DNA of 55,169 bases from Raillietiella orientalis (lineage: Eukaryota), in NCBI GenBank assembly GCA_036172245.1, contig JAYWIR010000115.1:62001-117169 (forward strand). Reading direction: 5' to 3'. A model generated the notes under the pieces. The model searched no databases, was not told the DNA's origin, and saw only the letters and a program-made list of their open reading frames with translations. This document shows positions 1 to 55,169 of this stretch, one piece after another; positions within the stretch are counted from its first letter, which is position 1, and every line of letters starts with the position of its first letter. Made by a program: the position numbers and the translations under genes.

Positions 1-193
1 GCCAATCCAGAAACAGGGAAATATCCGAAGAACCTCGGTTGAAAAAGTAGGTGAGCAAGAAGATCGCCATAAAGCGAGGACTTCCAGCTCAAACCCGCTA
101 TCCCTTCCCAAACCGGCAAACCATCAATATAACGTAGGGCTCTCTACGGCGGCTACGAAACCCGTAGCAAGCGGCGGCGCGCCGCGCAAAAAC

Positions 194-874
194 ATGCTGC
201 ATGCAGCCGACCCTCCACGGACTCGGCAAGAGAGGAGCAATCTCCCGACTGCCAAGAAGGTGGCTCCGCTGCCACCTTTGAAAGGCGTGGCGAAAGCGAC
301 GCCCCTAGAGGCGGCAGCGAAAACTCCGGAGGTTTCCGAGACGAACGTCCTGGAAGCGTTCGGAAATCGTGAAGGAGAATGGAAGGTTGTGGAGAGGAGA
401 AAAGAAAAACCTTCCAAGAAGGCTTCGCAACCTCCATCCGTTAGCTCTTTGAAGGCGCAGAACAGCCTCTTAGACAAGAAAACACGCGCGGAGGAAAAAG
501 CCAGCGCCGTCAACGCTTACAATTCCGCCTCTCTGAGCGCCGAGAAGACGATTCCGGTGCGATCGGAAGGATTCAAGGGTACGTCGATCGTGCGAGCATC
601 AAACTCTGTAAAGGAGTCCGATAACGACGCTGAACGACGTGTTACTTGCGCGGGAGCGAGCGTCCGCAGGGCTGAAGCCCTGAGGCATGACACACTCGCC
701 GCGGAACGCCGAGTGCTCGAACCGGAACCCACAGTTTCTGATCCCGGGGTGGTGGACTCGATAACGCGCAGCACGGTGAAGGCCGGTAGCGACCGCTCCC
801 TCCAGCCCGTCGTGCTGCTTACTGCCCGCTCGCCGGGTGAGCCGAGCACCACGGCCTCGCTATCCCAGCCGTGA
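194..874 (+). CDS. ORF1 (gag-like) C-terminal region of B1, partial
   Basis: Ala/Ser/Lys-rich ORF with WKVVERRK motif; its TGA (872-874) overlaps the ORF2 ATG (874-876). Confidence 0.7.
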   Translation: MLHAADPPRTRQERSNLPTAKKVAPLPPLKGVAKATPLEAAAKTPEVSETNVLEAFGNREGEWKVVERRKEKPSKKASQPPSVSSLKAQNSLLDKKTRAEEKASAVNAYNSASLSAEKTIPVRSEGFKGTSIVRASNSVKESDNDAERRVTCAGASVRRAEALRHDTLAAERRVLEPEPTVSDPGVVDSITRSTVKAGSDRSLQPVVLLTARSPGEPSTTASLSQP

Positions 875-1931
875 TGAGGGCAATCGCGTCTTCTCGTCGT
901 GTTGCGGTGGCGTGCTGGAACGGCAACGGTCTCCAACACGACAAGAAGAGGCGACTAGTAGCTAACGCTCTGCGCGCCTTCGACTTGACGCTCCTGCAGG
1001 AGATTCACAGCATCTCCGAAGAGCAGGCTGCCGAAATCGAACGTCGCGCGGGCGGAAGGCTACATTATAGGTGCGGCGTCGCACGTACGTGCGGCGTCGC
1101 TTTCGTTTTACGAAGAACTTCGGCGGGAGCGGTGCCCGGTGTTTGCTTCGATACGGAAGTCCGTGTGGGACAGCTTGAACTCAAGTGGTCCGACTCGATC
1201 GACCTTGTCGTAACGAACGTGTACGCGCTTAACGGTGCTGGATGATGGGCCGAAAGAATTGAGTTCTTCGGTACCGTTCAAAGCCAGTGGCTCACTCGAT
1301 CTCACCCTACTGTGGCCCATCTCATTGCGGGAGACTTTAACGTCCACCTGCTTTCCGAGAATAGCTTCCACAAAAGGGAAAAGTTTCTAGCGGAAGAGAT
1401 GTGCGCGGCCGTGCACGCGTCCAACTTTTTCGCTAGCGACCCTGTTCTGGCGACATCACCGGACCATGTATTCCTCGATGAATACTTGCTCTCTCGAGTG
1501 GGTCCGAGATGTTCCATGCCGTCCGTGCTTTCGGACCACATCAGGCACGAATTCGAGTTGCTCCCGCCAGGCAAGGGGCCTCCAAACTGTGTTTGGAGGA
1601 AGCCAGCAGACTGACTAAGTCACCCGGAGGCGGCGGAGCATCTTCGCCTGTACCTACGCGGCTTCGCCATAAGTGAGCTCGCTGACTGGGACGATCTGAA
1701 CAGATCGGTCCGCGAGTTTTGCTGCCAGTTTCCCTTGCACCAGCTCTCGCGCCGCTTCGGAGAAGGTGGAGGGAACAGCAGAAATTTTCTGCAGGCCCGC
1801 TCCTACTCCAGGCGCGCAGACGTTGGTCGATTATACGAGTACAAAGCCAAGGCTGAGCGCCAGGTCTGGCAGTCTGGAGCTACATTTCTGATCGACGACC
1901 AGGACCGGGAATGCTCGGCACCAGCCAATGT
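874..1931 (+). pseudogene. ORF2 apurinic-like endonuclease domain of B1 (disrupted)
   Basis: ORFs 871-1245, 1312-1614 and 1735-1968 carry consecutive APE motifs; homologous to the less disrupted 51892-52857. Confidence 0.9.
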
Positions 1932-2822
1932 TTGTCACCCGGATATGCCGGGGCATTTACTATTCTAATTTTGTACAAAAATTAGATAATAAAGTCTTTA
2001 AAAAGAAGTTTACTGTGGGGAAACACAGGGTTCTCCCACCTTGCTCGACGTGTCGGTTGCCGGTGCATAGACCGGTTAGGTTCATTTCCGAGGCACATGG
2101 GAAGAGAAAACTAGAACAAAAACAAACAAAAAGACAGATAACGGTGAGGGAAACAGTTATATGGAGAGAGGAATGGGGGCAGGGAAAAAATCACTGGGCG
2201 CCTGGGTCGGTCCTCCGCATCCTGTTGAGGATGCAGTCAAGTTCGGTTTTTATTGTGAAAGGTAGACGCCACCTTGTCGCCGTCTCTAAAGAGATCGTCG
2301 TTTAGTGGATGGCGTCCCTGCATCTTAAGCCTCTTCTCCTGGCGTGCCACCTTTGCACAATGCCGCTCACGCAGCAGAGGACTGCTAGAGACGCAGCGGG
2401 GCGCAGGCCGTCACTCAGAAAGAGGCGACGGAAAATTTCCTTAGGGTCGCCTACTGGAAGATGGAGGATTAAGGCGATTCGACTCCAGAGTCCATCCTGA
2501 GCGACACACTCGAGGGTGAGATGAGGGAAGGTTTCTCTTTCTCCGCACTCGACACAGCGGGCATCCACATTCCCCAGTGTCCAGTGAGACAGGCGTGCTC
2601 TGCTTAACAGTCCTAAGTGCAGAAATAGCAACGCCGTCTCCTGCAACATCAACGGGAGTGTGTTGCAATCCCAACACGCTGGGGGCCACTTCACCTCCTC
2701 CGGAAGTATTGCGACCAGCTCTCCCCAGCGCGCAAGTCCGTGAGGCGGGACGCTCGGGGTGGCAGCGTCCGTTAGCTCCCGAGTCGTCTACGCCTTTAAA
2801 GGTTTTTTGCGGCCTCGGAAAT
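1932..2822 (-). mobile_element. Family A copy A1, 5'-truncated (C-terminal CCHC + 3' UTR)
   Basis: CVECGERETFPHLTLEC in ORF 2302-2694; 3' stem-loop 1938-1952; flanked by CCAGCCAATGT (1921-1931) and CCAGCCGACGT (2823-2833). Confidence 0.9.
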
Positions 2823-2833
2823 CCAGCCGACGT

Positions 2834-5709
2834 TTGCCACCCGGATATGCCGGGGCATTTATTATTCTGATTTTTTACAAAAATTAGATAATAAAGTCTT
2901 TCAAAAGTTAATTGTGGGAAACACTTGGTTTTCCCACCTTGGTTGACGTGTCTGTTGTCGGTGCATAGACCGGTTAGGTCCATTCCCGAAGCGCATGGGA
3001 AGGGAAAACTAGAACAAAAACAAACAAAAAGAGAGATAACGGGGAGGGAAACAGTTGTATGGAGAAAGGGAGGAAGCAGGGAAGGGATCACTGTGCGCCT
3101 GGGTCGGTCCTCCGCATCCTGTTAAGGATGCAGTCAAGTTCTGCTTTTACTGTGAAAGGTAGACGCCACCTTGTCGCCGTCTCTAAAAAGATCGTCGTCC
3201 AGTGGATGGCGTCCCTGCATCTTGGGACTCTTCTTCTGGCGTGCCACCTTTGCACAATGCCGCGCACGCAGCAGAGGACTGCTAGAGACGCAGCGGAGCG
3301 CAGGCCGTCACGCAGAAAGAGGCGACGGTAAATTTCCTTAGGGTCGCTTTCTGGAAGATGGAGGATTGGGGCGATTCGACTCCAGAGTCCATCCAGAACG
3401 ACACACTCGAGGGTGAGATGCGGGAAGGTTTCTCTTTCTCCGCACTCGACACAGCGGGCATCCACATTCTTCAGTGTCCAGTGAGACAGGCGTGCTCTGC
3501 TTAACAGTCCCAGTGCAGAAATAGCAATGCCGTCTCCTGCCACTTGAACAAAAGTGTGCCGCAATCCCAACACGCTGGGGGCCACTTCACCTCCTCCGGA
3601 GGTACGGCGAGCAGCTCTTTCCAGCGCGCAAGTCCGTGAGGCTGGACGCCCGGGGTGGCAGCGTCCGTGAGCTCTCGAGTCGTCTATGCCTTTAAAGGTT
3701 TTTTTCTGCCTCGGATGAGGCAGGACACTTCCCACGATGCCAGCTCGTTGCTGCTCCTAGTGTTATTCAGGGAGGACAGAACGGGGGCAAGGGGACTGAA
3801 AGAAGCCCACAGAAACTTCCGGGGCGTGTTGATAATCTCCTGCAGCGGCTGTCGAGCGTACGGTCCTCGTCGTAGGCAGTTTTATTCCGCCTCGCTCGTG
3901 CCGTTGATCTTAGCCCACGCGGAAGCTGACTCCTGAAGCCAGGCAGTGCAGTTCGCGGGGATGCAGGAGATCCAGGTATTCTCCCTCATCAGGGCGACCA
4001 TCTGGCGCAAATCGGGGCCACAGTTGGAGAGGCTGCGCTGGTAGGCCACGAGGATCGAGGACAATCCTTCGCAGCCAGTCGCTCTTCTGGCAAGGAGCCG
4101 TGCAGGATCGCACCATGGCGTCATCCATAAGCTAGCCGCAAGGGCTAACTTCCGAAGTGTTGTCTGTAGTTGGATGCGCTCTAACGTAAGGAGGCTCAAG
4201 CCAGAATCCCTGCGTGGAGCGCACAAGTCTTTCTATCGAACTCGCGACCTCGCTGTGCCCCAAAGGCCAGTCCTCAGAAGGGCTTTGGTCCGTCTCTGTA
4301 TGATGGGAGGGGCGGGGCAAACAAAAAGTAAGGGGCGAAGGAGGGGGGCCAGGAACGCGTTCCACACCGCGGCCCGCTTCTGCAAGTAAAACTTGCCGTT
4401 CCGGAACGGGCCGATCGCCAACTCCACCTTTTGGAGACGGTCGGACCAGCCTTCTGCAACGTAGAAGTCCCCTAACGGAACGCCAAGGTACTTGAAGCAC
4501 CTGCCCGTCGGGATTTCCAAGCGGATCCAGTACGGCCGTCCGGCCCACGCCGTATTGTTTAAAAGTAGTGGTGATGCTAAAACGATGGAAGATTTCTTTC
4601 TGTTCACCTCGAGGCCCGTCCCGCGGCGCAGCAACTCAAAGAAATCTTCGAGCGCCGACGCCTGGGTGGACCCGGGGAGCAGGAGCAGAAGGTCGTCGGC
4701 GTAGGCCGACACGGCAGACGTGCCGGGACACGACCTTGGCAGGGTTGCCAGAGTCTCCCTGTATGCCCTCAGCACCAGCTCGAAGTAGATGCTGAAGAGC
4801 GTGGGGCTGAGACTGTCACCCTGCCTTATGCCACGCCGAACCGATACGTCGTACACGTGCCGGCCGCTAAAAGAGATGTTTATTTGAGCGAAGCGCCAGC
4901 AGGAGCGCAGGTGAGCCCGGAAGACGGCCGGGAATCCCAAGCGTTCCAGGAGCTCCAGAAGGAGTTCCTGGTCGACGCAATCGAACGCTTTACGCAGATC
5001 GACTGCGACCGCAAGGGCTCCTGGCGCGGCTCTTCCATGAAGGGCGTCCCCTTCTTGTTCTGAGGAGAATCCGGGATTCTCTTGACCTCCCTGCTCTTCG
5101 CTTTGTTGCAACTGCCACCATGTACTGGCGAGGAACAGGTTGGCCTCCATGCTTCGTCTGGGAACAGCGTATGTCTGCTGCGGACTCACCACGGATTCCG
5201 CTACCCGTCCCAGTCGCTCAGCCCAAATCGTGGCAAGCAACTTCGCATCCGCATTCACTACTGTGATGGGACGCCAGTTGCCTACGTTGCGATTGTCTCC
5301 TCCTTTCGGCAGGAGACGTACTCTAGCTGACCGGAACGATTTGGGGACGTCCCCTTGTTCTCGGATCAGCATGCAAACCCGATGCATCAAAGGGGCCAGC
5401 TCCGCCACGAAGCCTTGTTAAAATTCTGCGGGCAGACCGTCTTCCCCTGGTGCTTTCCTCTTTCTGAGCTTTCCGATGGCGGAGACGATCTCCGTCATCG
5501 AGAAAGGCTCCTCAAGTTGATGTGTCTGCTCCTCCTGTAGCGCGGGGGTGCCTTGCGGCAGCAAGCGCTGCGCCTCGACGCGCTCTGTTGTTCTACGCGC
5601 GTACAAGGAGGAGTAATAGTCCCGCAGGATTCGGTTTATTCTCGCCGGAGCTGAGCATTCCTGGCTTTGGGCGTCCAGCAAGCTGCCCGACCCGGATTTC
5701 CAGGCGCCG
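2834..5709 (-). mobile_element. Family A copy A2, 3' portion (linker, RT, CCHC, 3' UTR)
   Basis: KAPGEDG, NWRPITVVNADAKL, DLRKAFD, GIRQGDSLSP, YADD, KYLGV motifs; 3' stem-loop 2840-2854. Confidence 0.92.
4233..5408 (-). pseudogene. Non-LTR reverse transcriptase domain of A2
   Basis: 391-aa ORF with all core RT motifs including YADD; in-frame stop just upstream, near 5418. Confidence 0.92.
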
Positions 5710-5815
5710 TAAATAGAGATTGTGCTCCATTGCCATCTTTGAAGCCATCCGCGTTTTTGAACGTGGGCACTTTCGATGGCTCCGACACGCTCGTCATGGA
5801 CGCTGCGTTTGCCGT
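5710..5815 (+). mobile_element. Left stub of plus-strand host B2 (APE-RT linker fragment)
   Basis: Reads GTFDGSDTLVMDAA and continues after A3 as SAVQRVVKRNY (6571-6606), homologous to PADVQRIVRRYY. Confidence 0.55.
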
Positions 5816-6570
5816 TTGCCATTTGCCACCCGGATATGCCGGGGCATATATTATTCTAATTTTCTAGAAAAATTAGATAATAAAGTCTTTCAAAAGTTAA
5901 TTGTGGGAAACACTTGGTTTTCCCACCTTGGTTGACGTGTCTGTTGCCGGTGCATAGACCGGTTAGGTCCATTCCCGAGGCGCATGGGAAGGGAAAACTA
6001 GAACAAAAACAAACAAAAAGAGAGATAACAAGGAGGGAAACAGTTGTATGGAGAGAGGGAGGAAGCAGGGAAGGGATCACTGTGCGCCTGGGTCGGTCCT
6101 CCGCATCCTGTTCAGGATGCAGTCAAGTTCTGTTTTAACTCTGAAAGGTAGACGCCAGCTTGTCGCCGTCTCTAAAGAGATCGTCGTCCAGTGGATGGCG
6201 TCCCTGCATCTTGGGCCTCTTCTTCTGGCGTGCCACCTTTGCACAATGCCGCGCACGCAGCAGAGGACTGCTAGAGACGCAGCGGGGCGCAGGCCGTCAC
6301 GGTAAATTTCCTTAGGGTCGCCTACTGGAAGGTGGAGGATTGGGGCGATTCGACTCCAGAGTCCATCCAGGGCGACACACTCGAGGGTGAGATGCAAGAA
6401 GGTTTCTCTCTCTCCGCACTCCACACAGCAGGCATCCACATTTCCCAGTGTCCAGTGAGACAGGCGTGCTCTGCTTAACAGTCCCCAGTGCAGAAATAGC
6501 AACGCCGTCTCCTGCCACTTCAACGGAAGTGTGCCGCAATCCCAACACGCTGGGGGCCACTTCACCTCCT
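5816..6570 (-). mobile_element. Family A copy A3, 5'-truncated
   Basis: Near-identical to the A1/A2 3' ends; stem-loop 5829-5843; flanked by GCGTTTGCCGT (5805-5815) and GCGTCCGCCGT (6571-6581). Confidence 0.9.
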
Positions 6571-8790
6571 GCGTCCGCCGTACAGCGCGTAGTCAAGCGC
6601 AACTACGAGAGCTTTTGGAACGTCTGGGTCTTCCGGCATCCCTGTTGGCGTCCTTGCTTTCCTGCAGGCGCCACGGGATTACATCCATTGTTTTCAGTGG
6701 CTGTCACGTGTACGACGTGCCGGTTAGGCGAGGAATTAGGCAGGGCGATAGCTTGAAGCCGCTGCTCTTTAGCATCTATTTTGAAATGGTTCTAGAGGCT
6801 TACAGGCTGACGCTGGCCAACCTGCCGAGCTCCTCTTCAGGTACGCCGGCCGTGGCAGCCTATACCAACGACCTGCTTCTTCTGTTGCCCATGTCCACCC
6901 CGGCGGCGTCGCTTGAAGATTTCTTTGAGTTGATCCGTCGCGGTGCGGGCGTGAGCGTCAACACAAGCAAGAGCCTGGTTGTTCCGGTTGGAGCGACGTG
7001 GGAGGGGCAGTCCGACTGGATCCGCCTGGGGATCCCCACGGGCAGGTATCTAAGGTACCTTGGCGTGCCGTTAAGCGACTTCTGCATCTCAGAAGCGTGG
7101 TCAGACTGCCTTCGGAAGGCAGAGCGTGCACTTGGCCCGTTCTCAGGAGGCGAGTTCGTCTTGCCGGAACGAGCCAGCATCTGGAACACCTTCGTTGCTT
7201 CCCTCCTCCGTCCTCAGTTTTTTGTTTGTCCACCCCCCCAGGAAGTCAAAGTCTGGGCGCAGCACCTTCTACGCAAAGCGTTGTGGGGCGCTGCAAGATC
7301 CCGTGTTAGACTTAAATTCTTGGTGGCGCCGCGTCAGGATGCAGGCTTGGGCATCCTCGACTGAAACAGTATGGACCTGCAGGTGCAGTTTCGCATTCTG
7401 CGTCTCTGTGCTTAGCTGTAGTGTACGCCGTGGTGCTTACCCGTACGCTTTCTACTGAGGCGTTGTACGGGAAGCGAGGGACTGCTTTCGTTGCTGCCCC
7501 ATTTTCGGCACATCAGAATAGAGTTTGCCTTTCCGCTGAGGCAGCTTTCCTCACTGTTGGAAGCCCAATGCTGTATCTCCTGCCGCTGTATGAACATTAA
7601 TGCATGACGGCAGGAATCTTTCTCATCGTGGGCAGCTTCCGAAGGAACGCGCATGGAAGATCTTCGACGCCTGCAACTTCTCTTCAGTCATCCAATGGAC
7701 GATATCATGCAGGACAAGAAGTCGAATCGTCTGCGCACAATACTACTCGCCTCAGCGCTGTTTGCCCAGAGGGAAAGCAACGACGGTTGCCTACCGGAGG
7801 AATGGGAGTTCTCCTGCAAAATCGCGGGAGACAGTAAGCTCCTCGGCAGCTGGACGACAAAGGAGCTGGTGCAAGCCGCCACTCCTCGGAATCGGGCGAT
7901 GGGCCTGCTTCGGTGGAGGGAACATTTAAGTGTGCCCCCCGGAGAGATAGTCGTTCCCCCCGTTTGTTTGTACAGCTCCGTGTTCCCCCTAAAGTGGAAA
8001 CAAGATGTGCTGCTCTTTTTACATTGCGCATTACACTGTAATAGGCATCGAAGCATCGTTTCCGGGGGAGCTGCTTTGCCAAACTGTTCAAGGTGCCAAG
8101 AGATCGAGTCTTTTCCGCACCTTTAGCTGGACTGCGGTGACCTCCGGGAACTGTGGCGAAGGCTCACTTCGGCCACCATGTCACAAGGAGGCACTGCCAT
8201 TGATGTGCTGCGGCGCTTCTTCAGCAGAAATGGACTTTCGGTTGGCGCGATTGTCGCAACCATGTGTTGCGTTCGCGCCATCGTGAAGGCCCGCTAAGCC
8301 CTGGAGTTGTCATTGCAGCGAAGGGAGGCTCACCTGCTTGCAGCTCAATTCATGGAGAAGGCTTCAAGGTGGTCTCATCTTCGTGACAAGGTGAATGAGG
8401 ACATCAGCGGCATACATCGCTGGTTTACACACCTTTGAGAACGGCGAAATCCGGTGACCTCTGCGACCTCTCGCCCACCCATACTCCGTCCCCATTCGCT
8501 CGGTAAAATTTCCGGTTCCCATGCTTTTATGCCCGTGTCTTCCAGAGCGATCCCAAAGACCCTTATCCCGTCCTCCTTATCCATTGTTTTTATTTTATTT
8601 TGGTTTCTTTGTGTTCCCCGCCCTTCCCACACCGTTCGCAAAACTGTTACTCTGGCCTGCGTGCCAGCAATATTCTCTTCATTCTTGTTCAGTCGTCGGT
8701 TGGGAGTTTGGTTCCCAACTGGTTTATTTTATATAATTGTTTTTTGTTTATGTTATATGGAATAAACGCCTTGGCGTGACCGGGTGAGAA
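6571..8790 (+). mobile_element. Family B copy B2 (internally deleted; RT C-half, CCHC, 3' UTR)
   Basis: GIRQGDSL, YTNDLLL, RYLGV, GLGI, CSRCQEIESFPHL; collinear with about 10300-12474; AATAAA at 8761 followed by the stem-loop. Confidence 0.9.
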
Positions 8791-9606
8791 ATCCTCCGGG
8801 CTTGATCTGCGGAGATCACGTGGATCTCCTGCAGCAGCACCAGGTCGAAGGATGCCAAGGTGGCGGCCACGTCACGCGTCTTGCCGTCGTTGCTTAGCCC
8901 GTTGACGTTCCAGCAGGCGATCAGCAGACGACGATTGGAGGCGATTCCCGGCTTTATTGCTGGTAAGGTGTCGCTGCAGCACCTGCCGCGGGGCAAATGT
9001 TGGGGATGTCCATGGGGACGGAGGCCTCTTCAGGCACCAGATGCACCTGTTCGGCTTCCACCCCCTCCATCCCCTTCGTGTGGGAGCGTGGGATTCTCTC
9101 TGGCAACGGATCCCGGAAGTTTACCACGCTCAGCGCACCATCGCTGAAGGAAGCCATCTCTTCCCCTTCGTCGGGGAGACGATCATCTTGGGCTTTGGGG
9201 ACTTTCGTCCAGTTCTTTTGCGAGGTGCGCTGCAGATATAAGCTGAGCTTCCGGCCTCTACCTCAAGGCCGGAAGTAAGGGACTTCTGAGGGGAGGCCGG
9301 ACGCCTGACGGCCTTCTTTCCAGCCTTCGGGGCAACCGGCTGCAAAGAGGCAGCCAGTTCCTCCGCGACGCGCTCGAAGGCGACGTCCTCAAGCGTGGGC
9401 TCGATGACGGACGCCGCCGCCTCGCTCCACTCCTTGTTGACTTCGTCAACGGAGGGTTGAGCGGAGGCAGCAGGGAGTTCTTTAGCGCCGCATTCGTCGA
9501 TGGCGGAAATCCGCTCTACGTCGACGCAGCAGCTTTTGTTTTTTTCGCAGCGCGGAGCGGTTTCGCTCCTATCCGCCACGTTCTTTTCCTTTTTAGGGAA
9601 GTTTTT
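8791..9606 (-). mobile_element. 5' portion of A2 (ORF1 C-terminus + APE N-terminus)
   Basis: IACWNVNG...LLQEIHVISADQARRI cut at 8791. The right end abuts CCAGCCGACGT (9607-9617), identical to 2823-2833, which links it to A2. Confidence 0.8.
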
Positions 9607-12474
9607 CCAGCCGACGTGCAGCGGATAGTCAGGCGCTATTACTCTTCTCTGTATGCAGAGGCACCAACGGCACGCAGTCTCTCCGAGCTGCTTCTGCCGA
9701 TTCATGCACCTGTTGTAGACGAGGAGGAACGCGCGCGTCTCAATGAGCCTTTCACGGCAGAGGAAATTTCTTCGGCCATCTCGCGGCTTAAGAGACGAAA
9801 AGCGCCAGGCAAGGATGGACTCCCCACAGAATTCTTCCAGAGCTTAACGGCGGAGCTCATCCCCCTGGTTCTTCAACTCTCATCGCTGATGCGAGACGCG
9901 GGCGATATCCCCGCCTCGTTTCGCTCACCGAAGGTGCGTCTCCTGCCGATAGGCGGAGATTCGCGTCTACTGAACAATTGGCGTGCGATCCCCTTAGTGA
10001 ATTCGGACGTCATGTTGTTCTCGAAACTTTGGGTGGCGCGGATGGGGAGGATCGCGGAGTCTTTGGTAAGTCCGGAGCCGACCTACGCTGTTCCTGGGCG
10101 CTCCATGGACGCGAACCTCTTACTCCTCCGCACATGGCTGCAATTGCAGCATCGCGTGGCGAAGGATCGTCGTGCGGAAGCAACGCCTTCGATCTCTGAC
10201 CGACGGAGGCGCGGGTCACAAAGGGAAACCCCGGGAGCCTTGGCGGTTGCAGTCGATTTGCACAAACCTTTCGATTGCGTGAACCAAAAGCTTCTTCTTG
10301 AGCTCTTGGAACGTTTGGGCCTACCGGCATCCCTGTTGGCGTACTTGAGCTCTTTGCTGGCGCCACGGGATAACATCCATTGTTTTCAGTTGCTGTCACG
10401 TGTACGGCGTGCCAGTTTGGCGAGGAATTAGGCAGCGCGATAGCTTAAGCCCGCTGCTCTTTGGCATCTACTTTGAAATGGTGCTGGAGGCTTAGAGGCT
10501 GACGCTAGCCAACCTGCCGAACTCCTGTCCAGGTACGCCGGCAGCGGCAGCCTATGCCGACGACCTGCTTCTCCTGTTGCCCATGTCCACCCCGGCGGCG
10601 TCGCTTAAGATTTCTTTGAGTTGATCCGTCGCGGTGCGGGCGTGAGCGTCAACAGGAGCAAGAGCATGGTTGTTCCGTTTGGAACGACGTGGGAGTGGCA
10701 GTCCGACTGGATCTGCCTGGGGATCCCCACGGGCAGGTACCTCAGGTACCTTGCCGTGCCGTTGGGCGACTTTTGCATCTCAGAAGCGTGGTCGGACTGC
10801 CTTCGGAAGGCAGAGGGTGCACTTGGCCCGTTCTCAGGAGGAGAGATCGTCTTGCCGGAACGGGCAGCATCTGGAACACCTTCTTTACTCCCCTCCTCCG
10901 CCCCCTGTTTTTTGTTTGTCCACCCCCCCAGGAAGTCAAAGTCTGGATGCAGCGCCTCCTACGCAAAACGTTGTGGGGCTCTGCAAGATCCCGCGCAAGA
11001 CTTAAAGACTTGGTGGCGCCGCGTCAGGATGCAGGTTTGGGCATCCTAGACTTAAAAAGCATGGAGCTGAAGGTGCAGTTTCGAATGCTGCGGCTCTGTG
11101 CCAAGCTGTGGTCTACGCCGTGCTGCTTATCCGCACGACTTATACTAAGGCGATGCACGGGAAGCGAGGGACTGCTTGCGTTGCTGCCCCACATTCGGCA
11201 CATCAGAATAGGGTTTGGCTTCCCGCTGAGGCAGCTGTCCTCACTGCTGGAATCCCAATGCTGGATCTCCTGCCGCCCCATCAACATTAATGCATGGCGG
11301 CAGGAATCTTTTTCATCGTAAACAGCTTTAAGGGAACGCGTTCGGAAGATCTTCGGCGCCTGCGACTTTTCCTCAGTCATCCAATGGACGAAGTCATGCA
11401 GCACAAGAAGATGTCGGATCGTCTGGCCGCCACACCGCTCGCCGCAGCGCTGTCTGCCCTCAGGGCAAGCAACGACAGTTGCCTACCGGCGAAATGGGAG
11501 TTCTCCTGCTCAATAGCGGGAGTCATTAAGCTCCTCGGCTACTGGACGACAAAGGAACTGGTGGAAACTGCTACTCCTCGCAATCAGGTGAAGGGCCTGC
11601 TTCGGTGGAGTGAACATTTAAGTGTACCTCCCGAAGAGATAGTGGTCCCCTCTGTTTGTTTGGACAGCTCTGTGTTCCCCCTAAAGTGGAAACAAGATGT
11701 GCTGCTCTTTTTACATTGCGCATTACACTGTAATAGGCAGCGAAGCATCGTTTCCGGGGGAGCTACTCCGCCAAATTGTTTGAGGTGCGGTGAGATCGAG
11801 ACTTTTCCGCACCTCATGATGGACTGCGGTGACCTCCGTGAACTGTGGCGAAGGCTGATTACAGCCATCCTGCCGCAGGAAGGCACTGCCATTGATGCTC
11901 TGCGGCGCTTCTTCAAGAGGAATGGATTTTCGTTAGGCGCGATTGTCGCAACCATGTGTTGCATTCGCGCCATCGTTAAGGCCCGCTACGCACTGGAGTT
12001 GTCAGCGCAGCGAAGGGAGGCTCACCGGTTTGCAGCAGAATCCATGAGAAACGCTGCTAAGTGGTCTCATCTTCGTAACGAGGTCAAAGAGGACATCGTC
12101 GGCATCCACCGCCGGATTACAGACTTTTAGGAACGGCTTTATCCGGTGACCACTACGTCCTGAAGCCTACCCATACCCGTTCCTTGCTCGCTCTGCTAAA
12201 ATACCGGTGCGATTACTATAATCCCGGAGAGAACCAGAGCTATCCCAAAGACCCTTGTCCCCGCGTCAACCGTGGATTTCTTCTTTTGTTTTTGTTTGAT
12301 TGTTTTCTCAGTTCCCTCAAACCGTTCTGTGTAATTCTGGCCTGCGTGCCAGCAGTATTCTCTTGACACTTGTGCCGTCGTCGGCTGGGGGCATGGTACC
12401 CAACTGGTTTATTTTATATATTTATTTCTATTGTATTTATATGAAATAAACGCCCCGGCGTGACCGGGTGAGAA
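9607..12474 (+). mobile_element. Family B copy B1, 3' portion (linker, RT, CCHC, 3' UTR)
   Basis: KAPGKDG, DLHKPFD, YADD (gcc tat gcc gac gac near 10550), CLRCGEIETFPHLMMDC; AATAAA 12445-12450 and stem-loop 12454-12468. Confidence 0.9.
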
Positions 12475-12925
12475 ATCTCTTGCGCTTGTTCTGCAGAGAT
12501 CACATGGATCTCTTGCATCAGCACAATGTCGTAGGACTCTAGCAGGGCAGCCATGTCTCGTCTCCTGCCGGCGTCTGTCATGCCGTTCACGTTCCAAAAG
12601 GCGATGCGCAGTCGACGGCGGGAGGAGATTCCCGCCATTACTGCTGGGAAGATTAAGGTGTGGGATAGCCCGCCTCTTGCGAGGCGGGCGGGATGTCCAT
12701 GAGGGTTTCGGCCTTCTCAGGCACCTGTTCGGCCTCCATCCCCTCCATCCCCTCCGTGTCCGTGCGTGGGAGTCTCTCGTGCGACGGGTCCCGCGAGTTT
12801 CCCACGCTCATGGCATCACACACGTCGGGGTGGTCATGGGTAAAAGGAGAAGGTCATCGGCATAGGCCGCCACAGACGGCGTACCTGGACAAGACCTCGG
12901 CAGGTTGGCCAGCGTCAGCCGGTAC
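12475..12925 (-). mobile_element. C-type element fragment (APE N-terminus + ORF1 tail) fused to a short RT (YADD) fragment
   Basis: IAFWNVNG...LMQEIHVISAEQAQEI cut at 12475; homologous to 49150-49480; 12825-12925 encodes YRLTLANL...AYADDLLLL. Confidence 0.8.
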
Positions 12926-13165
12926 GTGCAGACGTGTGTCCATGTTGCTCCCGTAGGTGACAGTTTAGTTGTGAAGTTCGTGAAATCTTCTGCAAGCATT
13001 TACGTTTATATTGTATTCCGTGTATCTTACGGAGTTATTTTACTTGTTCACAAGGAATCGTAGTGATACAGTGATTATTGTAGAGAATGAAAGGTCTCTT
13101 CTTTGGCCGTCCGCATCTGCTAGCGTCTAACTAGAAAGCTGTTGTTTGGCCAAGGTAAGACTTAC

Positions 13166-13396
13166 CCCAAGTTGCTTTGACCTCAATATTTTGGAACAAC
13201 CATTTAAGTTTTTTCAAAACTTCTTTTGGCGCTAAGTCGGCAGCAAAATTATCAGGGCAACGCCTGAATTGATTCACAATAGTTACTGTCGCATAGCATC
13301 CCAAGATCTCAACTCTTAATTTCGAGTTTGAATTCTCAATACAAGCAACAACTAGCACTTTCTGTGCTTTCTGCAATATTGTGTAAACCAAAATTT
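13166..13396 (-). other. Candidate host exon, unknown gene
   Basis: Open frame (ORF 13131-13391) bounded by ACTAAT...CAG acceptor and GTAAG donor; 231 nt, phase 1-1. Confidence 0.25.
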
Positions 13397-13440
13397 CTGA
13401 CCAATTAGTTAATTTTTCTTTTTATTTGCAATACTGAGTT

Positions 13441-42481: not shown

Positions 42482-42482
42482 A

Positions 42483-47520: not shown

Positions 47521-49835
47521 AGAAACCAGCCTCCACCCCAGTCCTTGGAGGATATAGGAGTACAATAGCAGGTACGGAAGCGTTTCCACTTCCCGCACCG
47601 TTTACAGTTCGAGGAGACACCTCCCCCAGAAACACGGTTCGTCCGCTGGTTCGAGTAAAAACTCCAATGCACCACTTTATGACGTCCTGCTTCTACGAAA
47701 GGGGGAACACAGAAGTGTTCAAACAGGAGGAAGGGACCACAAGTTCTTCGGGGGGAACACTCAAGTGTTCACTCCACCGAAGGAGTCCCTTCGAGATGTG
47801 GCGAGGCGTGGCGGCGTCTGCCAGCTGACAAGTTCTCCAGCCGCCTATGGGTCGTGTTGTTGCTGCGATGGTTCAAGCGAATCCCCCATCTTGTCGGTTC
47901 GCAGCTGTCATCTTTTGCCCTGAAAGCTGACAGCGCTTCGACGAGGGGCGTGACGGCCAGGCGAGTCCACTAATCCTGGCTGTTGCACACCTCGTCCAAC
48001 TTGCAGTACAGGGAGAGGTGAGCGCAACGAAGTTCCAGGAGGGAAACATCCTGGTGCTTTGCCCAGCCATGTAACGGTTCCTGCCGCCAGGCTTGAAAGT
48101 TCGTTGGGTTGCAGGAGATCCATTCCTGGGCTGCCAGTAGCCGCTAGAGCGGTTTCCAAGGGAAACCGAAACTTGTCGTGGGGATCTCCGTGTGCGGACG
48201 CAACAATAGAAGTCCATCACTGCCTGTGCAGCGCCGCAAAAGAAGGCGCGCGGGAGCGCACCACGGAGTGGACTAAAGGTTGGTGCACAGGGCCAACATC
48301 CGAAGCTGCATCTGCTACCCGATTCTCTCCATCGTCAGGATGCCTAATCCAGCATCCCGACGCAGAGCCGTCAAGTGTTTTAAGCAGATCCTGGACCTCG
48401 CAGGTCCCCACAGAGCGTTCCTCAACAGGCTGTGCGCCTGTAGCTTGGCCGAGATTGGGGGCGGGCAAACAAAAAGCAGGGACGCAAGTGGGAGGCAGCG
48501 AAAGTGTTCCATATAGTGGCCCGCTCCGTCAGGACGAACCTGCCATGGTGGAACGGGCTCAGGGCATTCGAAGCCTTCCGAAGGCAGTCCCACCACACTT
48601 CCAGTGGGCTGATGTTCCCCAGCGGAACGCCCAGATATTGCATGGAGGAAGCGGTCGGGATCCCCAGGCGGATCCAGTCGGACTGCCCCTCCCATGCCGC
48701 ACCAATAGGTACGACCACGCTCTTGCTTCGGTTTACACTCATGTCCGCTCCCCGGCGAATCAGCTGGAAGAAATTTTCGAGACTGGACGCCGGGGCGGTC
48801 ATGGTTAAAGAAGAAGCAGATCGTCAGCATCGGTCGCCACGGACGGCGTCCCTGAGCAAAAGCTCGGCAGGTTGGCCAGCGTCAGCCTCTATGCCCAAAG
48901 CACCAACTCAAAGAAGATGCTGAAGAGTAACGGGCTTATGCTGTCGCCCTGCCACATGCCCCGCCGCATTGGCACGCCGTACACGTGGCATTCGCTGAAA
49001 GAGATGGAAATGAGCGCCTGGCGCCAGCAAGCCCGCAAATACGCCACGAGGTGCACCGGGAGACCGAGGCGTTCCACGAGCTCCAGCAGGAGATCCTAAT
49101 TTACGCAGTCGGCAGCCTTGCTTGCTCCAGGGTGGACGTGTTTTCTCGGATCTGCAGAGATCACGTGGATCTCCTGCAGCAGCGCAAGGTCATAGCACTC
49201 CAGAAGGGAGGCCATGTCTCGTCTCCAGCCGGCGTCTGTCATGCCGTTCACGTTCCAAACGGCGATGCGCAGACGACGGCGGGAGGAGATTCCCGGCATT
49301 ACTGCTGGGAAGACTAAGGTGTGGGGGAGCCCGCCTCTTGCATGGCGGGCGAGATGTCCATGGGTGTTTCGGCCTTCTCAGGCACCTGCGGCACCTGTTC
49401 GGCCTCCTCCCCCTCCATCCCCTCCGTGTCCGTGTGTGGGAATCTCTCGGGCGACGGGTAACGAGAGTTTCCCACGCTCAAGGCACCCTCGCTTGCGGAA
49501 GCCATCTCTTCTCCTTCCACGGGGGATACGAGCTTCCTTGGATTTGTGGACTTACGTGCAGCCTTCTTGCGGGGTGCCGTGGAAACGGAGGCTGCGCTTC
49601 TGGTCTCCACCTCGGGATCGGAAGTGGGTGACTTCTGAGGGGAAGTGGGACGCCTTACGGCCTTCTTGCCAGCCTTCGAGGTTTCTAGCTGCAACCAGGC
49701 AGCAAGCTCCTCCGCGGCTCGCACGAAGGCTACGTCATTGATGGTGGTGTCGATGACAGACGCCGCCGCCGGCTCGCTCCCCTCGCTGTTGACAGAGTCA
49801 ACAGAGGGGTTGTCGTCGGTAGCGACGTGTTCTTT
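47521..49835 (-). mobile_element. Family C copy C2 (ORF1 tail, APE N-terminus, internal deletion, RT C-half, CCHC; both ends missing)
   Basis: IAVWNVNG..QEIHVISAD joined near 49145 to KAADCVN/ELVERLG; 47521-48800 collinear with C1. Confidence 0.85.
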
Positions 49836-49837
49836 TT

Positions 49838-52800
49838 AACAGCGGTCGGAAATACGCTCGACGACAACGGTGCACGGACGTGTTCTGTGTTGCTCCACGA
49901 GCGTGATTCCTTTCCGTCTTCTTGTGTGTGGTGTGCCCGAGTGCGTCCACTGGCATGTCCACGGAGCCCCTGCAGCAAAAGATGGATGTGGAGGCTGCTA
50001 CTGGCAGTGGAGACTCTACTCCAGATGTCGGGTCCGCCTCTGATTCTTGTGTCTCGCCACCGGCGAGAAGCTTCGCCGCCGTCGTCAAGGTGGCGGCAGC
50101 CAACGGAGCACCGCCCGACGAAGCGGAGCTGCAGGCACATGCAGCCCATGGCTACAAGCCTGCGCTCTGCTATCCGGTGAGTTCTGAGATCTCCGACGGG
50201 GTCGGAGAAAATTTGCGGGACGAGCTTTCGCGCCTCGGGGTCCGACAGGACGACCTCCTGGCCGTCATGCCGGTTAACGCGCTCGGACACTGGGAGGTGC
50301 ACTGCAAAGAGGCATCCCTAGTCCAGCGCCTTCTTTGCACCCCGCTAAATATCCGCGGGAAGGAGGTCGTCTGTTGGCCATGGACCAGTCGTTCGTGGTT
50401 CGATTATCCGCCGTCCAGGTGGACACGCTTGATCGCGTGCTCGTCGCTGCACTAAGTGCATTCGCCACGGTGCACGCGCTGTGGAGAGCAGATAATCCGA
50501 TCAAAAGGATTGCATCTCTCCACAGCAGACTTGCCATGGCGCGTGTCACCATGGCGGATAGGAGGCAAATGCATCCGCACTTGCAGGTGGGCGATGCGAT
50601 CGTCCACCTTAAATTTGCCGGTCAGCGACCGGCTTGCGGTATTTGCTGTGCCCAGGGCCACCGTCCGTGGACGTGCCCTTCACGCAACTGCCGCTATTGT
50701 AAACAGCTCGGCCACTCCATCAAAGAGTGTGCAGAGCTGAAGAGGAAGCGGCAGGCGAAAAGCCGCCAACAATCTACCTCGTCCGCGCCGACAAGATCCC
50801 CCGTTGTGCCACGGGAGAAATCGGGAGCGAAGGGCGGGGCATCTTCGAGTGGCGGTCCCGCAAAAAAGGGCGCGGTTGCTTCAGGAAAGCCATCCCAGAC
50901 AACTGCGCAGACGGGAAATATGCCACGTCGCCCTGGGGACAAATCGCCTTCTTCGAAGCAGCCTAAGAGTGCGGGCACGCACTCAATCAAGGCTGCTGAA
51001 CCGTCTGCGTCCGCTTGCGCGTCCAGCGGAGCATACGGGAAACCGTGCGCGGGTACCCTCGGAGCTACCTCTGAACGGCAGTCTCCTCCTACGGCGGTGG
51101 AGATCACGTCTTCCACGCCGAAGGCACGAGCAGCGAAGGCTGCAATAGCGCCTCGCGGGACGACGGCAATCACCGCCGTTTCGCACGCATCGGCTAAGGA
51201 GCAGGTGCAGTGCGTAACGGGGACGGAGCCGTCTCCCGCCGCGAGCGCGAAACGTGAGCCGGCATCTCCGGCCAAACAATTGAGGGAGGCGTCGGCCTCC
51301 CAGGAGGGCGTCCCCGACGCGGGCTGGACTCGAGTCTCCAGGACGCCCAAAAGGGGAAGAAGAAGGTTGTCCCTTCAATATTCCCCATCCTTAAGGTAGG
51401 TGGGAGGCAAAAGAGAAGCACGCCGAACAAGGTGCGTACCCAGGTACTCACTACGGCTGCGTGCTCTGTCTTTGTCGCTTCGCGCGAGAGAGCGGCTGCG
51501 GAAGCCAAAGCTCCGGAAGCTGCGTTGGCGACTGCGACGACCCCCGCGCGGGCAGGGCAAGCCTCCTCCTGCCGAAACAAAAAGAGACTGGCAAAACGCC
51601 AGTCTCGCGCCAGGCACTCGGACTCCACCTCGGAGTCCGAGTGCAAACAAATGGAACGCGCATCCCGGGGAAGCCGGTAGCGCGCCGGGCAACAGTGCGA
51701 AAGCACGAGCCTGTTGCCGGAGGCGGTTCCGGCTCCTGCATGGAGACCGAGGCGATGATCCTCGGCTGCCAGGACTCAGCTGGGCGCGATGTGGCGGCGA
51801 ACGGGAGCCATTCCGCTTCCCTATCCGCTCTCCTACCAGCTGACTTCTCGCCGGACGGGACGAGGAGCACGCCGTCATGTCCGCAGCAGTGATGCGTGGA
51901 CTCGCGTCCGCTCGTCGCGTCAGCGTGGCCTGTTGGAATGTCAACGGACTACGTGATGCTGACAAAAGGCGGACGGTAGCCAACGCTTTGCGCGCGTTCG
52001 ATCTGGTGCTGCTGCAGGAGATACATACCATCTCCGTACGGCAGGCATCGGATCTGGAAGAGCGCGCGGACGGAACGCTACACTGGCGGCAAGGCTCCGC
52101 GCACACGTGCGGAGTCGCGTTCCTCGTCCGAGGCAGGGTGGCGGAGGCGGTGCGGAACGTTTGTTTCGACGAGGAAGGTCGTGTGGGCCAACTTGTCCTC
52201 AAGTGGTCCGAATCGATCGACCTGGTCGTTACGAACATCTACGCACCGAGCGGCGGCCGGTATTACGCCCAGCGACTTGCATTGCTGGGTGGCCTGCGCA
52301 GCCGCTGGCTCGCTGACTCCGGCCCTTACGTGGCGCACCTCCTTGCAGGAGACTTCAACGTCCACCTGCTAACAGAGGAGAGATGCCGCTTGAGGGAGAA
52401 GCAACTGGTGAGCGAGGTATGCGCGTCCGTGCGCGTGCAAAACTTCCTTGCTGGTGAGCCCGGGATGGAGAGATCGCCGAACCATGCGTTCCTCGATGAA
52501 CACCTGCTCTCACGACTAGGTCGGAGAGGGCGCCTGCTGTCCGCGATTTCGGATCATCCTAGACTGGAGTTCGAGCTCCTCCCGCCTGGCAAAGGGCCTC
52601 CGATCAATGTCTGGAGGTTGCCTGCCGACTGGCCTAGCAATTCCGAGGCGACGGGGCATCTCCGCCAACACCTCCGGGGCTTCGCCATCTGTGAACTCGA
52701 GGACTGGGACGATCTGAAAAGATCGGTCCGCGAGTTCTGCTGCCGGTTCACCTTGCACCTGCTTCCCCGCGGCTTCGGGAAGGGTGTCGCGAACAGCAGA

Positions 52801-52949
52801 TCCTATTTGCAGGCGCGTACCTTTTCACGATTTCCGGACGTCCGGCGTCTGGTATAGTATAAGGCCAGAGCCGAGCGCCAGGTTTGGCAGTCTGGAGCGG
52901 CTTGTCTGCTCGATGACGCTGACCAGGAATGTTCGGCTGCAGCCGAAGT
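49838..52949 (+). mobile_element. B-type element B3: 5' UTR, ORF1, APE; interrupted at 52949
   Basis: ORF1 from about 49955 with CGICCAQGHRPWTC and CRYCKQLGHSIKEC; TGATG overlap 51890-51894; APE ORF; ends QECSAAAEV. Confidence 0.92.
51892..52857 (+). pseudogene. ORF2 APE endonuclease domain of B3
   Basis: WNVNG, LQEIH, NIYAP, GDFN, SDH; premature TAG at 52855. Confidence 0.9.
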
Positions 52950-55169
52950 TTGCCACCCGGATATGCCGGGGCATTTATTATTCTAATTTTCTGCAAAAAT
53001 TAGATAATAAAGTCTTTCAAAAGTTATTTGTGGGAAACACTTGGTTTTCCCACCTTGGATGACGTGTCGGTTGCCGGTGCATAGACCGGTTTGGTCCATT
53101 CCCGAGGCGCATGGGAAGGGAAAACTAAAACAAAAACAAACAAAAAGAGAGATAACGGGGAGGGAAACAGTTGTATGGGTAGAGGGGGGGGGCAGGGAAG
53201 GGATCATTGGGCGCCTGGGTCGGTCCTCCGCATCCTGTTGAGGATGCAGTCAAGTTCAGTTTTTATTGTGAAAGGTAGACGCCACCTTGTTGCCGTCTCT
53301 AAAGAGATCGTCGTCCAGTGTATGGCGTCCCTGCATCTTGGGGCTCTTCTACTGGCGTGCCACCTTTGCACAATGCCGCGCACGCAGCAGAGGACTGCTA
53401 GAGACGCAGCGGGGCGCAGGCCGTCACGCAGAAAGAGGCGACGGTAAATTTCCTTAGGGTCGCCTACTGGAAGATGGAGGACTGGGGCGATTCAACTCCA
53501 GAGTCCATCCAGGGCGACACACTCGAGGGTGAGATGCGGGAAGGTTTCTCTTTCTCCGCATTCGACACAGCGGGCATCCACATTTCCCATTGTCCAGTGA
53601 GACAGGCGTGCTCTGCTTAACAGTCCACAGTGCAGAAATAGCAACGCCGTCTCCTGCCACTTCAACGGGAGTGTGCCGCAATCCCAACACTCTGGGGGCC
53701 ACTTCACCTCCTCCGGAGGTATTGCGAGCAGCTCTCCCCAGCGCTCATGTCCGTGAGGCGGGACGCTCGGGGTGGCAGCGTCCGTGAGCTCCCGAGTCGT
53801 CCACGCCTTTAAAGGTTTTTTCCTGCCTCGGATGAGGCAGGACACTTCCCACGATGCCCGCTCGTTGCTGCTCCTAGTGTTTTTAAGGGAGGACAGAACG
53901 GGGGCAAGGGGACTGAAAGAAGCCCACAGAAACTTCCGGGGCGTGTTGATAATATCCTGCAGCGGCTGTCGAGCGTACGGTCATCGTCGTAGGCAAGTTA
54001 TTCCGCCTCGCTCGTGCTGTTGATCTTAGCCCACGCGGAAGCAGACTCCTGAAGCCAGGCAGTGCAGTTCGCGGGGATGCAGGAGATCCAGGTATTCTCC
54101 CTCATCAGGGCGACCATCTGGCGCAAATCGGGGCCACAGTTGGAGAGGCTGCGCTGGTAGGCCACGAGGATCAAGGACAATCCTTCGCAGCCGGTCGCTC
54201 TTCTGGCGAGGAGCCGTGCCGGATCGCAGCATGGCGTCATCCATAAGCTAGCCGCAAGGTCTAACTTTCGAATTGTTGTTTGAAGTTGGATGCGCTCCAA
54301 CATAAGGAGGCCCAAGCCACCATCCCTGCGTGGAGCGCACAAGTCTTTCAATCGGACTCGCGACCTCGCTGTGCCCTAAAGGGCAGTCCTCAAGAGGGCT
54401 TTGGTCCGTCTCTGTATGATGGGAGGGGCGGGGCAAACAAAGAGTAAGGGGCGAAGGAGGGGGGCCGCGAACGCGTTCCACACCGCGGCCCACTCCTGCA
54501 AGTAAAACTTGGCGTTCCGGAACGGACCGATCGCCAACTCCACCTTTTGTAGACGGTCGGACCAGGCTTCTGCAACGCAGAAGTCCCCAACTTAACGCCA
54601 AGTTACTTCAAGCACCTGGCCGTGGGGATCCTCAAGCGGATCCAGTCCGGCCGTCCGGCCCACGCCGTATTATTGAAAAGTTGTGGTGATGTTGGAACCA
54701 TCGAAGAATTTTCTCTGTTCACCTCGAGGCCCATCCCGCGGCGCAGCAACTCAAAGAAATCTTCGAGCGCCGACGCCGGGGTGGACCCTGGGAGCAGGTG
54801 CAGAAGGTCGTCGGCGTAGGCCGACACGGCAGGCGTGCCGGGACACGAGCTTGGCAGGGTTGCCAGAGTCTCCCTGTATGCCCTCAGCACCAGCTCGAAG
54901 TAGATGCTGAAGAGCATGGGGCTCAGACTTTCACCCTGCCTTATGCCACGCCGAACCGGCACGCCGTACACGTGCCGGCCGCTAAAAGAGATGTTTATTA
55001 GAGCGAAGCGCCAGCAGGAGCGCAGGTATGCCCGGAAGACGGTCGGGAATCCCAAGCGTTGCAGGAGCTCCAGAAGCAGTTCCTGGTCGACGCAATCGAA
55101 CGCTTTACGCAGATCGACTGCGACCGCAAGGGTACCGGGCGCGGCTCTTCCATGAAGGGCGTCTCTTCC
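52950..55169 (-). mobile_element. Family A copy A4 (3' UTR, CCHC, RT; runs off the window)
   Basis: Collinear with A2; YADD in ORF 54603-55055; stem-loop 52956-52970. Confidence 0.92.

Follow-up and report, generated by a model that had tools for sequence, protein, structure and literature searches.

The stretch analysed here (the window, 55,169 nucleotides of contig JAYWIR010000115.1 from Raillietiella orientalis, assembly GCA_036172245.1, positions 62,001 to 117,169 of the forward strand) contains a nest of decayed L1-like retrotransposons without long terminal repeats (non-LTR), i.e. long interspersed nuclear elements (LINEs) of the type that carries an apurinic/apyrimidinic-like endonuclease (APE). 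Copies of two of the families, designated A and B, are found at recurrent positions in the second open reading frame (ORF2) of the other: minus-strand A copies lie at one position of plus-strand B-type elements, between the APE and the reverse transcriptase (RT), and plus-strand B copies end at one position within the APE of minus-strand A- and C-type elements. This reciprocity is observed at the level of families (A in the B-type copies B1 and B4, B2 in the A copy A0), in a sample that consists of one 55-kb window with 3 A events and 2 B events. We interpret the arrangement as reciprocal site-specific target-primed reverse transcription (TPRT), in which each of two LINE families inserts, in antisense orientation, at a single defined site within the ORF2 of the other, and give this interpretation a rough probability of 0.55.

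Element families and architecture of the nest

The families were separated by self-BLAST and alignments. Family A comprises A0, A1, A3 and A4 (mutual identity 91-95%), with A5 and A6 as diverged A-like relatives (67-80% identical to A). B1 and B2 are 85.0% identical over 2171 nt and 91% identical within the RT core; the APE of B4 shares 70.3% of nucleotides (over 1102 nt) and 62% of amino acids with that of B1, which makes B4 a B-type relative. A further group, C/D/E, includes X2 and X3 (88-89% identical) as well as D and E1 (80%). Between A and B, identity in the RT core is ~66%.

Profile searches identified the Exo_endo_phos domain (PF03372) in B4 (51844-52854; E-value 1.8e-12, 47.9 bits, cut-off 24.5), and the nearest solved chains to this APE are those of the human L1 endonuclease (E-value ~1e-6). 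RVT_1 (PF00078) was found in A0 with an E-value of 5e-25, and the best score of zf-RVT (PF13966), in decayed copies, was 26.2 bits (E-value 1.3e-5, cut-off 27.5). The closest database protein, the 66%-identical relative P0049, matches human L1 ORF2p with an E-value of 7e-40 and R2 with ~1e-15; the other nearest proteins are 23-31% identical and carry no clade names. The marks of TPRT are present as well, namely a 10-bp target-site duplication (TSD) in three copies, 5' truncations at 2819, 6573 and 6609, and ten conserved 3' ends. Given the APE domain, an RT closest to L1 ORF2p and the TPRT marks, the elements are L1-like APE-type LINEs of the L1/Tx1 group, and may belong to the Tx1 clade. The upstream ORF1s of B1 (2-871) and B4 (~49960-51396, with a weak match to a CCHC knuckle) exhibit no detectable similarity to each other, yet the APEs of the two elements are 62% identical and A has inserted at the same site in both, which suggests that ORF1 has been exchanged modularly between B-type lineages.

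The elements of the nest and their relatives near the right end of the window are as follows (UTR, untranslated region; HSP, high-scoring segment pair).

1..1930, plus strand: B1, 5' half; ORF1 tail (2-871), APE (829-1833; matched by B4 APE aa 2-336 in tblastn, 62%) and APE-RT linker up to the putative A nick; left TSD copy CCAGCCAATG at 1921-1930
1931..2819, minus strand: A1, 5'-truncated; near-threshold zf-RVT region (the 26.2-bit match) and 3' UTR; 90.7-91.9% identical to A0, A3 and A4; to its right come AAT and then the middle TSD copy CCAGCCGACG at 2823-2832
2833..5705, minus strand: A0 (called A2 in the preliminary description), 3' part; linker, RT, C-terminal region and 3' UTR; a single tblastn HSP with P0049 (aa 1-615 on 5681-3822, 61%)
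5706..5807: U1, ~100 nt of unassigned sequence separating the A3 tail from the point where A0 ceases to be recognisable; minus-strand frame open throughout
5808..6573, minus strand: A3, 5'-truncated; extra tail units TTTGCCG and TTTGCCA before the canonical 3' end at 5822; 95.3% identical to A0
6574..6608: U2, 35 nt of filler where the truncated 5' ends of A3 and B2 face each other; no BLAST match elsewhere in the window
6609..8791, plus strand: B2, 5'-truncated; RT motifs through the 3' end ...GACCGGGTGAGAA(A); homology to B1 begins at 6609 = 10300, and 6609-9140 aligns with 10300-12818 at 82.8%
8792..9606, minus strand: X1, the 5' part of A0; ~600-nt leader and APE N-terminus, which the 3' end of B2 interrupts after ...LLQEIHVISADQARR; right boundary at the TSD copy 9607-9616
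9607..12475, plus strand: B1, 3' half; TSD copy CCAGCCGACG at 9607-9616, RT, C-terminal region, 3' UTR and 3' end; P0001 aa 418-586 match 9607-10116
12476..12818, minus strand: X2, the C-type host; APE N-terminus to ...LMQEIHVISAEQAQE; 5'-truncated at ~12818; 88% identical to X3, 73% to X1
12829..12927, minus strand: short E-like RT fragment adjoining X2, the outermost layer seen; matched by aa 296-328 of the E2 ORF (12924-12829, 85%) and by P0049 aa 306-355
49144..49950, minus strand: X3, the third A/C-type 5' part; B4 APE aa 9-64 match 49323-49156
51844..52948, plus strand: B4, APE and linker up to the putative A nick (...GCAGCCGAAG); ORF1 upstream at ~49960-51396
52949..55169, minus strand: A4, a long A copy running past the window edge, the 3' end of which occupies the linker site of B4

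The map supports a nest of four layers, in which a C-type element contains B1, B1 contains A1 and A0, and A0 contains B2. The preliminary description had reconstructed five; the fifth, A3 within B2, is not supported, as A3 borders on B2 and the 3' ends of both face outward, and the segment 5710-5815, taken there for the 5' piece of B2, has no DNA homology detectable by BLAST to B1, to B2 or elsewhere in the window. We likewise considered U1 and U2 as B2 or A0 sequence and found no BLAST support. The inclusion of B1 in the C-type host is borne out by the right-hand junction, and the left one is not seen, the 5' end of B1 being outside the window. B2 does lie within A0, although not as a simple split, some 730-830 nt of APE having been lost. 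By the logic of the TSDs, A0 is an originally full-length A element. The outer B1 is frameshifted, and the inner A0 (with at least one in-frame stop) and B2 each give one long HSP; the order of the nest is thus consistent with decay, the inner elements being more intact than B1.

Recurrent insertion sites

That minus-strand A copies sit at one site of a plus-strand B ORF2, as the preliminary description had noticed, is confirmed for three copies at the same homologous position of B-type elements: A1 (3' end at 1931), A0 (2833) and A4 (52949), with flanks that end at the junction in ...CACCAGCCAATG, ...TCCAGCCGACG and ...TGCAGCCGAAG, respectively. The position falls into the APE-RT linker, at 1930/1931 in B1, which was hit twice, and at 52948/52949 in B4. 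The TSD 10-mer CCAGCCGACG is present as exact copies at 2823-2832 and 9607-9616, i.e. at both ends of the unit 2833-9606, and immediately to the left of A1, at 1921-1930, stands CCAGCCAATG, the same 10-mer with two CpG-transition differences. The order read off the TSDs is therefore the left part of B1 with its TSD, A1, TSD, A0, and TSD with the right part of B1. The two halves of B1 are contiguous across this insert: the uninterrupted frame of A0 matches 1864-1932 and then 9607-9834, the A0 paralogue reading ...QECSAPA-RINRILRDYYSSLY... where B1 reads ...RECSAPA(N/D) up to 1930 and continues with VQRIVRRYYSSLY... from 9607. It is this colinearity that places the site in the APE-RT linker. A is antisense to B because the strand taken to be nicked is the sense strand of B, and the two separate A events at one phosphodiester bond of B1 suggest that recognition resides largely in one half-site. 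A1 was probably inserted before A0, as it is the most diverged A copy.

The comparison of inserts with flanks bears on whether these junctions arose separately. Identity between inserts amounts to 93.6% for A0 and A4 (2226 nt) and to 91.9% for A1 and A4, against 70.3% over 1102 nt for the B1 and B4 flanks, with an abrupt shift at the junction between B and A. As a copied ancestral junction would give equal divergence on both sides, the alignments favour INDEPENDENCE of the A events, that is, separate insertions and not one copied junction; the truncation differs as well (A1 of 889 nt, A0 of full length), and the unrelated ORF1s of B1 and B4 point the same way. Congruent flanks and inserts, which the preliminary description regarded as the mark of a segmental duplication, are thus not what is found at the A site within the window, where independent insertion is favoured.

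The other half of the earlier claim, that plus-strand B copies end at one APE site of minus-strand elements, is upheld by the junctions at 8791 (B2) and 12475 (B1). The B 3' end GGCGTGACCGGGTGAGAA is an identical 18-mer at 8773-8790 (B2) and 12457-12474 (B1), and immediately beyond each of them lies the N-terminal part of a minus-strand APE that breaks off at the same codon, just past a QEIHVIS motif; the two APEs are diverged and A-like (X1 ends in ...LLQEIHVISADQARR and X2 in ...LMQEIHVISAEQAQE). In tblastn, B4 APE aa 15-68 match 8960-8799 (X1) and aa 9-71 match 12662-12474 (X2). The nick position is uncertain by 1-3 nt, since tail and target share A/T bases, and the strand nicked is again the sense one of the element that was hit. 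Since X1 forms the 5' part of A0, the element bounded by TSDs, B2 sits inside an A element; X2 is of the C type.

Within the window, the two families are strictly associated with their sites. Both B-type linker sites are occupied by A; the corresponding linker of A0, of A type, has no insert and a different sequence (...CTCAGCTCCGGCGAGA...). Two of the three A/C-type APE N-termini carry B, and the third (X3) is broken 14 nt away; both B-type APEs (B1 and B4) are intact at the B-site position, where their sequence differs. The linker site has received A only (3/3) and the APE site B only (2/2); counted by family, three of the four copies of A proper and both visible B 3' ends are at their site. 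The pattern is not the self-targeting of Zepp-like elements, as the recurrent sites are cross-family and the homologous sites of each family's own copies are empty and different. We roughly estimate that ~0.02 coincident junction pairs would be expected by chance (~10 junctions, ~5 kb of homologous coordinate in two orientations, i.e. ~10,000 states), compared with 4 seen (A0-A1, A0-A4, A1-A4 and B1-B2).

The APE homology of X3 ends exactly 14 nt before the position of the B nick and abuts D, an RT fragment truncated at both the 5' and the 3' side (47522-49143, minus strand), with no B element between them; the break could be an internal deletion or the scar of an abortive cleavage at the B site. 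The 5' end of E2 was considered as another hit in the linker site and rejected, its first ~96 residues being unrelated to the linker and homology beginning only at about aa 97.

Proposed mechanism and alternative explanations

At least four families contribute to the ten recognisable LINE 3' ends of the window, and all ten are built on one module, in which AATAAA and a CCCGG-N5-CCGGG hairpin are combined with a short tail (GGCAAA, GAGAAA or ATAAA; also written TGRSAAA); they lie at 1931-2000, 2833-2902, 5822-5891, 8722-8791, 12406-12475, 32055-32124, 40699-40768, 42484-42553, 43467-43536 and 52949-53018. The terminal sequences are ...GGTGGCAAA in A, ...GGTGAGAA(A) in B and E1, and ...GGTAATAAA in E2. 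The terminal 21-mer of the A type, on the minus strand, occurs with 0 mismatches at 1936, 2838, 5827 and 52954 and with 2 mismatches at 32060 (chance expectation, 0 matches). A poly(A) tail is absent from all ten ends, unlike in mammalian L1. The five base pairs of the hairpin are essentially invariant and thus offer no covariation evidence either way, and inspection by eye for pairing between the RNA 3' end and the nicked target found none for A and 1-3 shared A/T bases for B. Its presence across families suggests a shared recognition signal for the RT and possible cross-mobilisation.

According to the proposed mechanism, the A endonuclease would place a nick in the APE-RT linker of B-type elements, on their sense strand, at ...GAATGCTCGGCACCAGCCGACG^TGCAGCGG (...ECSAPA^D-VQRIV...), and the freed 3'-OH would prime complementary DNA (cDNA) synthesis from the A RNA end ...CCGGGTGGCAAA; a second-strand cut 10 bp off would then yield the TSD CCAGCCGACG. 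B1 would have been struck twice at the same bond, by A1 and later by the full-length A0, and B4 once. The B endonuclease, for its part, would nick the sense strand of A/C-type elements just past the catalytic-Glu motif of their APE, at ...CAGGAGATCCACGTGATCTCCGCAGATCAAGCCCGGAGGA(TT)^, with B cDNA primed from ...GACCGGGTGAGAA, first in the C-type host (by B1) and later in A0 (by B2). The assignment of each protein to its site is an inference. Twin priming serves as a model for cDNAs primed from both ends of a double-strand break, and B2 and A3 may represent one aberrant event of this kind, in which two cDNAs were primed from both break ends and their truncated 5' ends met; such an event could have cost the A0 APE ~0.8 kb.

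It is possible that each family has evolved an endonuclease specific for the ORF2 of the other, so that its copies disable rivals and land harmlessly, its own site escapes and the nests extend themselves; this stronger form of the proposal we hold only tentatively, at somewhat less than even odds. Under it the two families might be each other's predator and safe harbour, as the preliminary description had supposed, and could build self-growing arrays.

Several observations weigh against reciprocal site-specific insertion. The sample is small, with few events per direction and all from the same locus. A3, although 95% identical to A0, does not lie at the B site, contrary to what had previously been claimed (its flank is ...GGACGCTGCG, followed by two extra TTTGCC[G/A] tail units, unlike the B site); A5 (42484; 67-80% identical to A) adjoins the truncated E-type RT of E1, and A6 (32055-33116), a diverged A-like copy, lies in AT-rich non-LINE DNA at the edge of a low-GC stretch. 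The exact 10-mer CCAGCCGACG is found at three places only in the window, and the third, on the minus strand at 12379-12388, is unoccupied, which means that the TSD sequence alone does not suffice as a target and that recognition would have to reach beyond it. A0 lacks APE residues ~71 to ~340 (730-830 nt) beside B2, hence the B2 insertion was not clean. Finally, a 3' module common to every family could, through trans-mobilisation, blur the assignment of endonucleases to junctions.

As a first alternative, the region could be an ordinary LINE graveyard without true sequence specificity, in which related L1-like families accumulated in a tolerated, probably heterochromatic island. The recurrent junctions would then stem from a weak nick preference in combination with the copying of an existing junction (for example, the B1-X2 junction into the A0 APE) through local duplication, gene conversion or break repair. 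Nine of the ten 3' ends lie within other LINE sequence at varied positions; not only A3, A5 and A6 but also the E1 and E2 3' ends are found at other sites (with flanks ending in ...GGTCGGTTG and ...CTGGTCG), and head-to-tail chains (E2, A5, E1, G) and an internally deleted copy (D-X3) are present. For the B junctions a local copying event is possible: B2-X1 and B1-X2 have the same orientation and are separated by only 3.7 kb, the differences between B1 and B2 are spread over codon positions in a nearly neutral pattern (96/68/105), and similarity is ~0.83 both over the terminal ~130 nt of B and over the adjoining ~47 nt of X. For these reasons we hold the independence of the two B insertions, as judged from the alignments, less firmly than that of the A insertions. 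On the other side, X1, which is part of the A0 unit delimited by TSDs, has no more than 67-73% identity to X2, compared with 88-89% between X2 and X3; over the aligned lengths X1 and X2 reach 72.7%, against 85.0% for B1 and B2; B1/B2 identity is block-wise (0.63 to 0.98 in 60-nt windows), unlike the uniform decay of a duplicate; the two copies differ in truncation (B2 of 2.2 kb, B1 longer); and their lesions are unshared, as B1 gives four HSPs with P0049 in tblastn, B2 one (aa 261-597), and the B1 frameshifts are absent from B2. At the A site, the fall in identity from 93.6% to 70% is steeper than a copied junction would allow, and the TSD triple records at least two separate events at one phosphodiester bond. 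Together with the low chance expectation of coincident junctions, these points make us regard a mere graveyard as unlikely.

A second alternative retains site specificity and drops mutual targeting: A, B1/B2, B4 and C/D/E would form a guild of site-specific elements with a common 3' module, the site being set by whichever protein mobilises the RNA, in cis or in trans, or only one of the two directions would be specific. The sharing of AATAAA, the CCCGG-N5-CCGGG hairpin and the TGRSAAA tail by all ten 3' ends would fit such a guild, as would the conservation of the A site in two B-type lineages with unrelated ORF1s, the use of the B site in A-type and C-type APEs alike, and a B direction that consists of two events only. 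The association seen in the window is, however, strict (only A in the linker, only B in the APE), and the E-type 3' ends lie elsewhere; we consider this explanation improbable. An artefact of assembly, by chimeric joins of repeats that are 0.8-3 kb long and 85-95% similar to each other, is very hard to credit, because mis-joins would neither yield matching 10-bp TSDs around a 6.8-kb insert nor leave the B1 halves nucleotide-colinear with a paralogue, and the copies, at least 5% diverged, are distinguishable.

Genomic surroundings and relation to known systems

The LINE-derived blocks at 1-13000 and 40000-55169 have a GC content of 55-62% and are separated by a stretch of 36-40% GC at 22-32 kb. 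Inside the latter, an exon at 30979-31377 encodes a phosphopantothenoylcysteine-decarboxylase-like sequence (Pfam Flavoprotein), with arthropod and other animal proteins as the top database matches (55-65% identity), which makes an invertebrate the most likely host. We had considered a green-algal Zepp cluster as the identity of the region and dropped it, this sole host-gene exon being of animal affinity. Scans of the window for tRNAs and Rfam families reported no RNA genes, and a tandem-repeat scan of 1-16000 no tandem arrays. A metagenome scan with the RT alignment gave 330 pattern matches and 0 relatives, a metagenome scan with P0049 7 loci (22-61% identity, short segments only, none usable), and a scan of viral contigs with the A 3' end 0 matches.

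The right-hand block contains a minus-strand head-to-tail chain, E2, A5, E1 and G (40699-46175), with neither spacer nor visible TSD, in which each 3' end abuts the truncated (in G, near-complete) 5' end of the next element; it fits RT template switching or serial end-joining, and not the TSD-bounded pattern of A1 and A0. A short tandem repeat (16-nt unit, three copies) lies at the truncated 5' end of E2 (45950-45997). Minus-strand A, C or E elements meet plus-strand B-type elements 5' to 5' at three places, A3 with B2 (6573-6609), E2 with B5 (~45900-46314) and X3 with B4 (~49950); at the last, the ORF1 of B4 starts (ATGGATGTGGAGG) near 49950, a few tens of nucleotides from the 5' end of X3. 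Between the blocks we found a pair of ~750-nt direct repeats (16834-17573 and 38790-39580, 72% identity) with no coding content recognisable by Pfam, a 385-codon open frame without a Pfam match (14272-15426, plus strand) in a segment with a GC skew of -0.29 (14-16 kb), and a far more diverged LINE remnant, unrelated to the nest, with APE and RT fragments (20020-21505, plus strand), the APE of which is 29-46% identical to B4 APE aa 100-285.

The closest known counterparts are Tx1L of Xenopus, which targets a fixed site in Tx1D, and the crocodilian SINEU-3, mobilised by Tx1 and found in Mariner-N4_AMi in 313 of 347 copies, for which sequential double insertions at the same site are also reported (PMC4494074; PMC6719617). 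As in our window, APE machinery of the L1/Tx1 group acts there on a fixed site in a multicopy transposon. There, however, a non-autonomous DNA transposon serves as target and does not strike back, whereas here it is the ORF2 of an autonomous LINE, entered in antisense, with a return site. The L1-type LINEs Zepp and ZeppL of green algae form clusters by nested insertion into existing copies (PMC8226300). Zepp hits its own family and builds arrays of 3' ends, unlike the cross-family insertions described here, which occupy fixed coding positions in antisense and leave the families' own sites empty; the host of Zepp is moreover an alga, and the present one an animal.

The nest also resembles R1, R2 and other site-specific LINEs, which have a fixed nick, a defined TSD or deletion, no reliance on poly(A) and a 3' UTR structure that is likely recognised by the RT (general statements in PMC4640811). 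Their targets are host genes (ribosomal DNA, small nuclear RNA genes) or microsatellites, which are unable to retaliate, whereas here they are LINEs; the endonuclease of R2 is restriction-like, and the present elements carry an APE. Tandem dimers of transposable elements arising by double insertion at one site have been treated in connection with the origin of satellites (McGurk and Barbash 2018, PMC5932611). A1 and A0 likewise stand head to tail at one nick with a TSD copy between them; the subject there is the origin of satellite DNA, and here it is targeting across families. Our full-text literature search, the scope of which excluded most subscription-journal papers and Repbase Reports, found no description of a reciprocal LINE-LINE pair.

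If specificity fails at the scale of the genome, the region is a well-resolved example of nested LINE decay. If it holds genome-wide, mutual targeting of LINEs would be an undescribed kind of relationship. The usual harbours of site-specific LINEs are passive (ribosomal DNA, small nuclear RNA genes, microsatellites or a dead DNA transposon); two active retrotransposon families serving as each other's harbour would instead constitute a direct interaction of transposon against transposon. Such a system would, in addition, be a source of two natural APE endonucleases of the L1 type whose recognition sites are long and GC-rich, of interest for engineered targeted retrotransposition. For the families themselves, it would predict that endonuclease and target co-evolve, that each family acquires escape mutations in its own site, and that transposon islands grow without involvement of the host.

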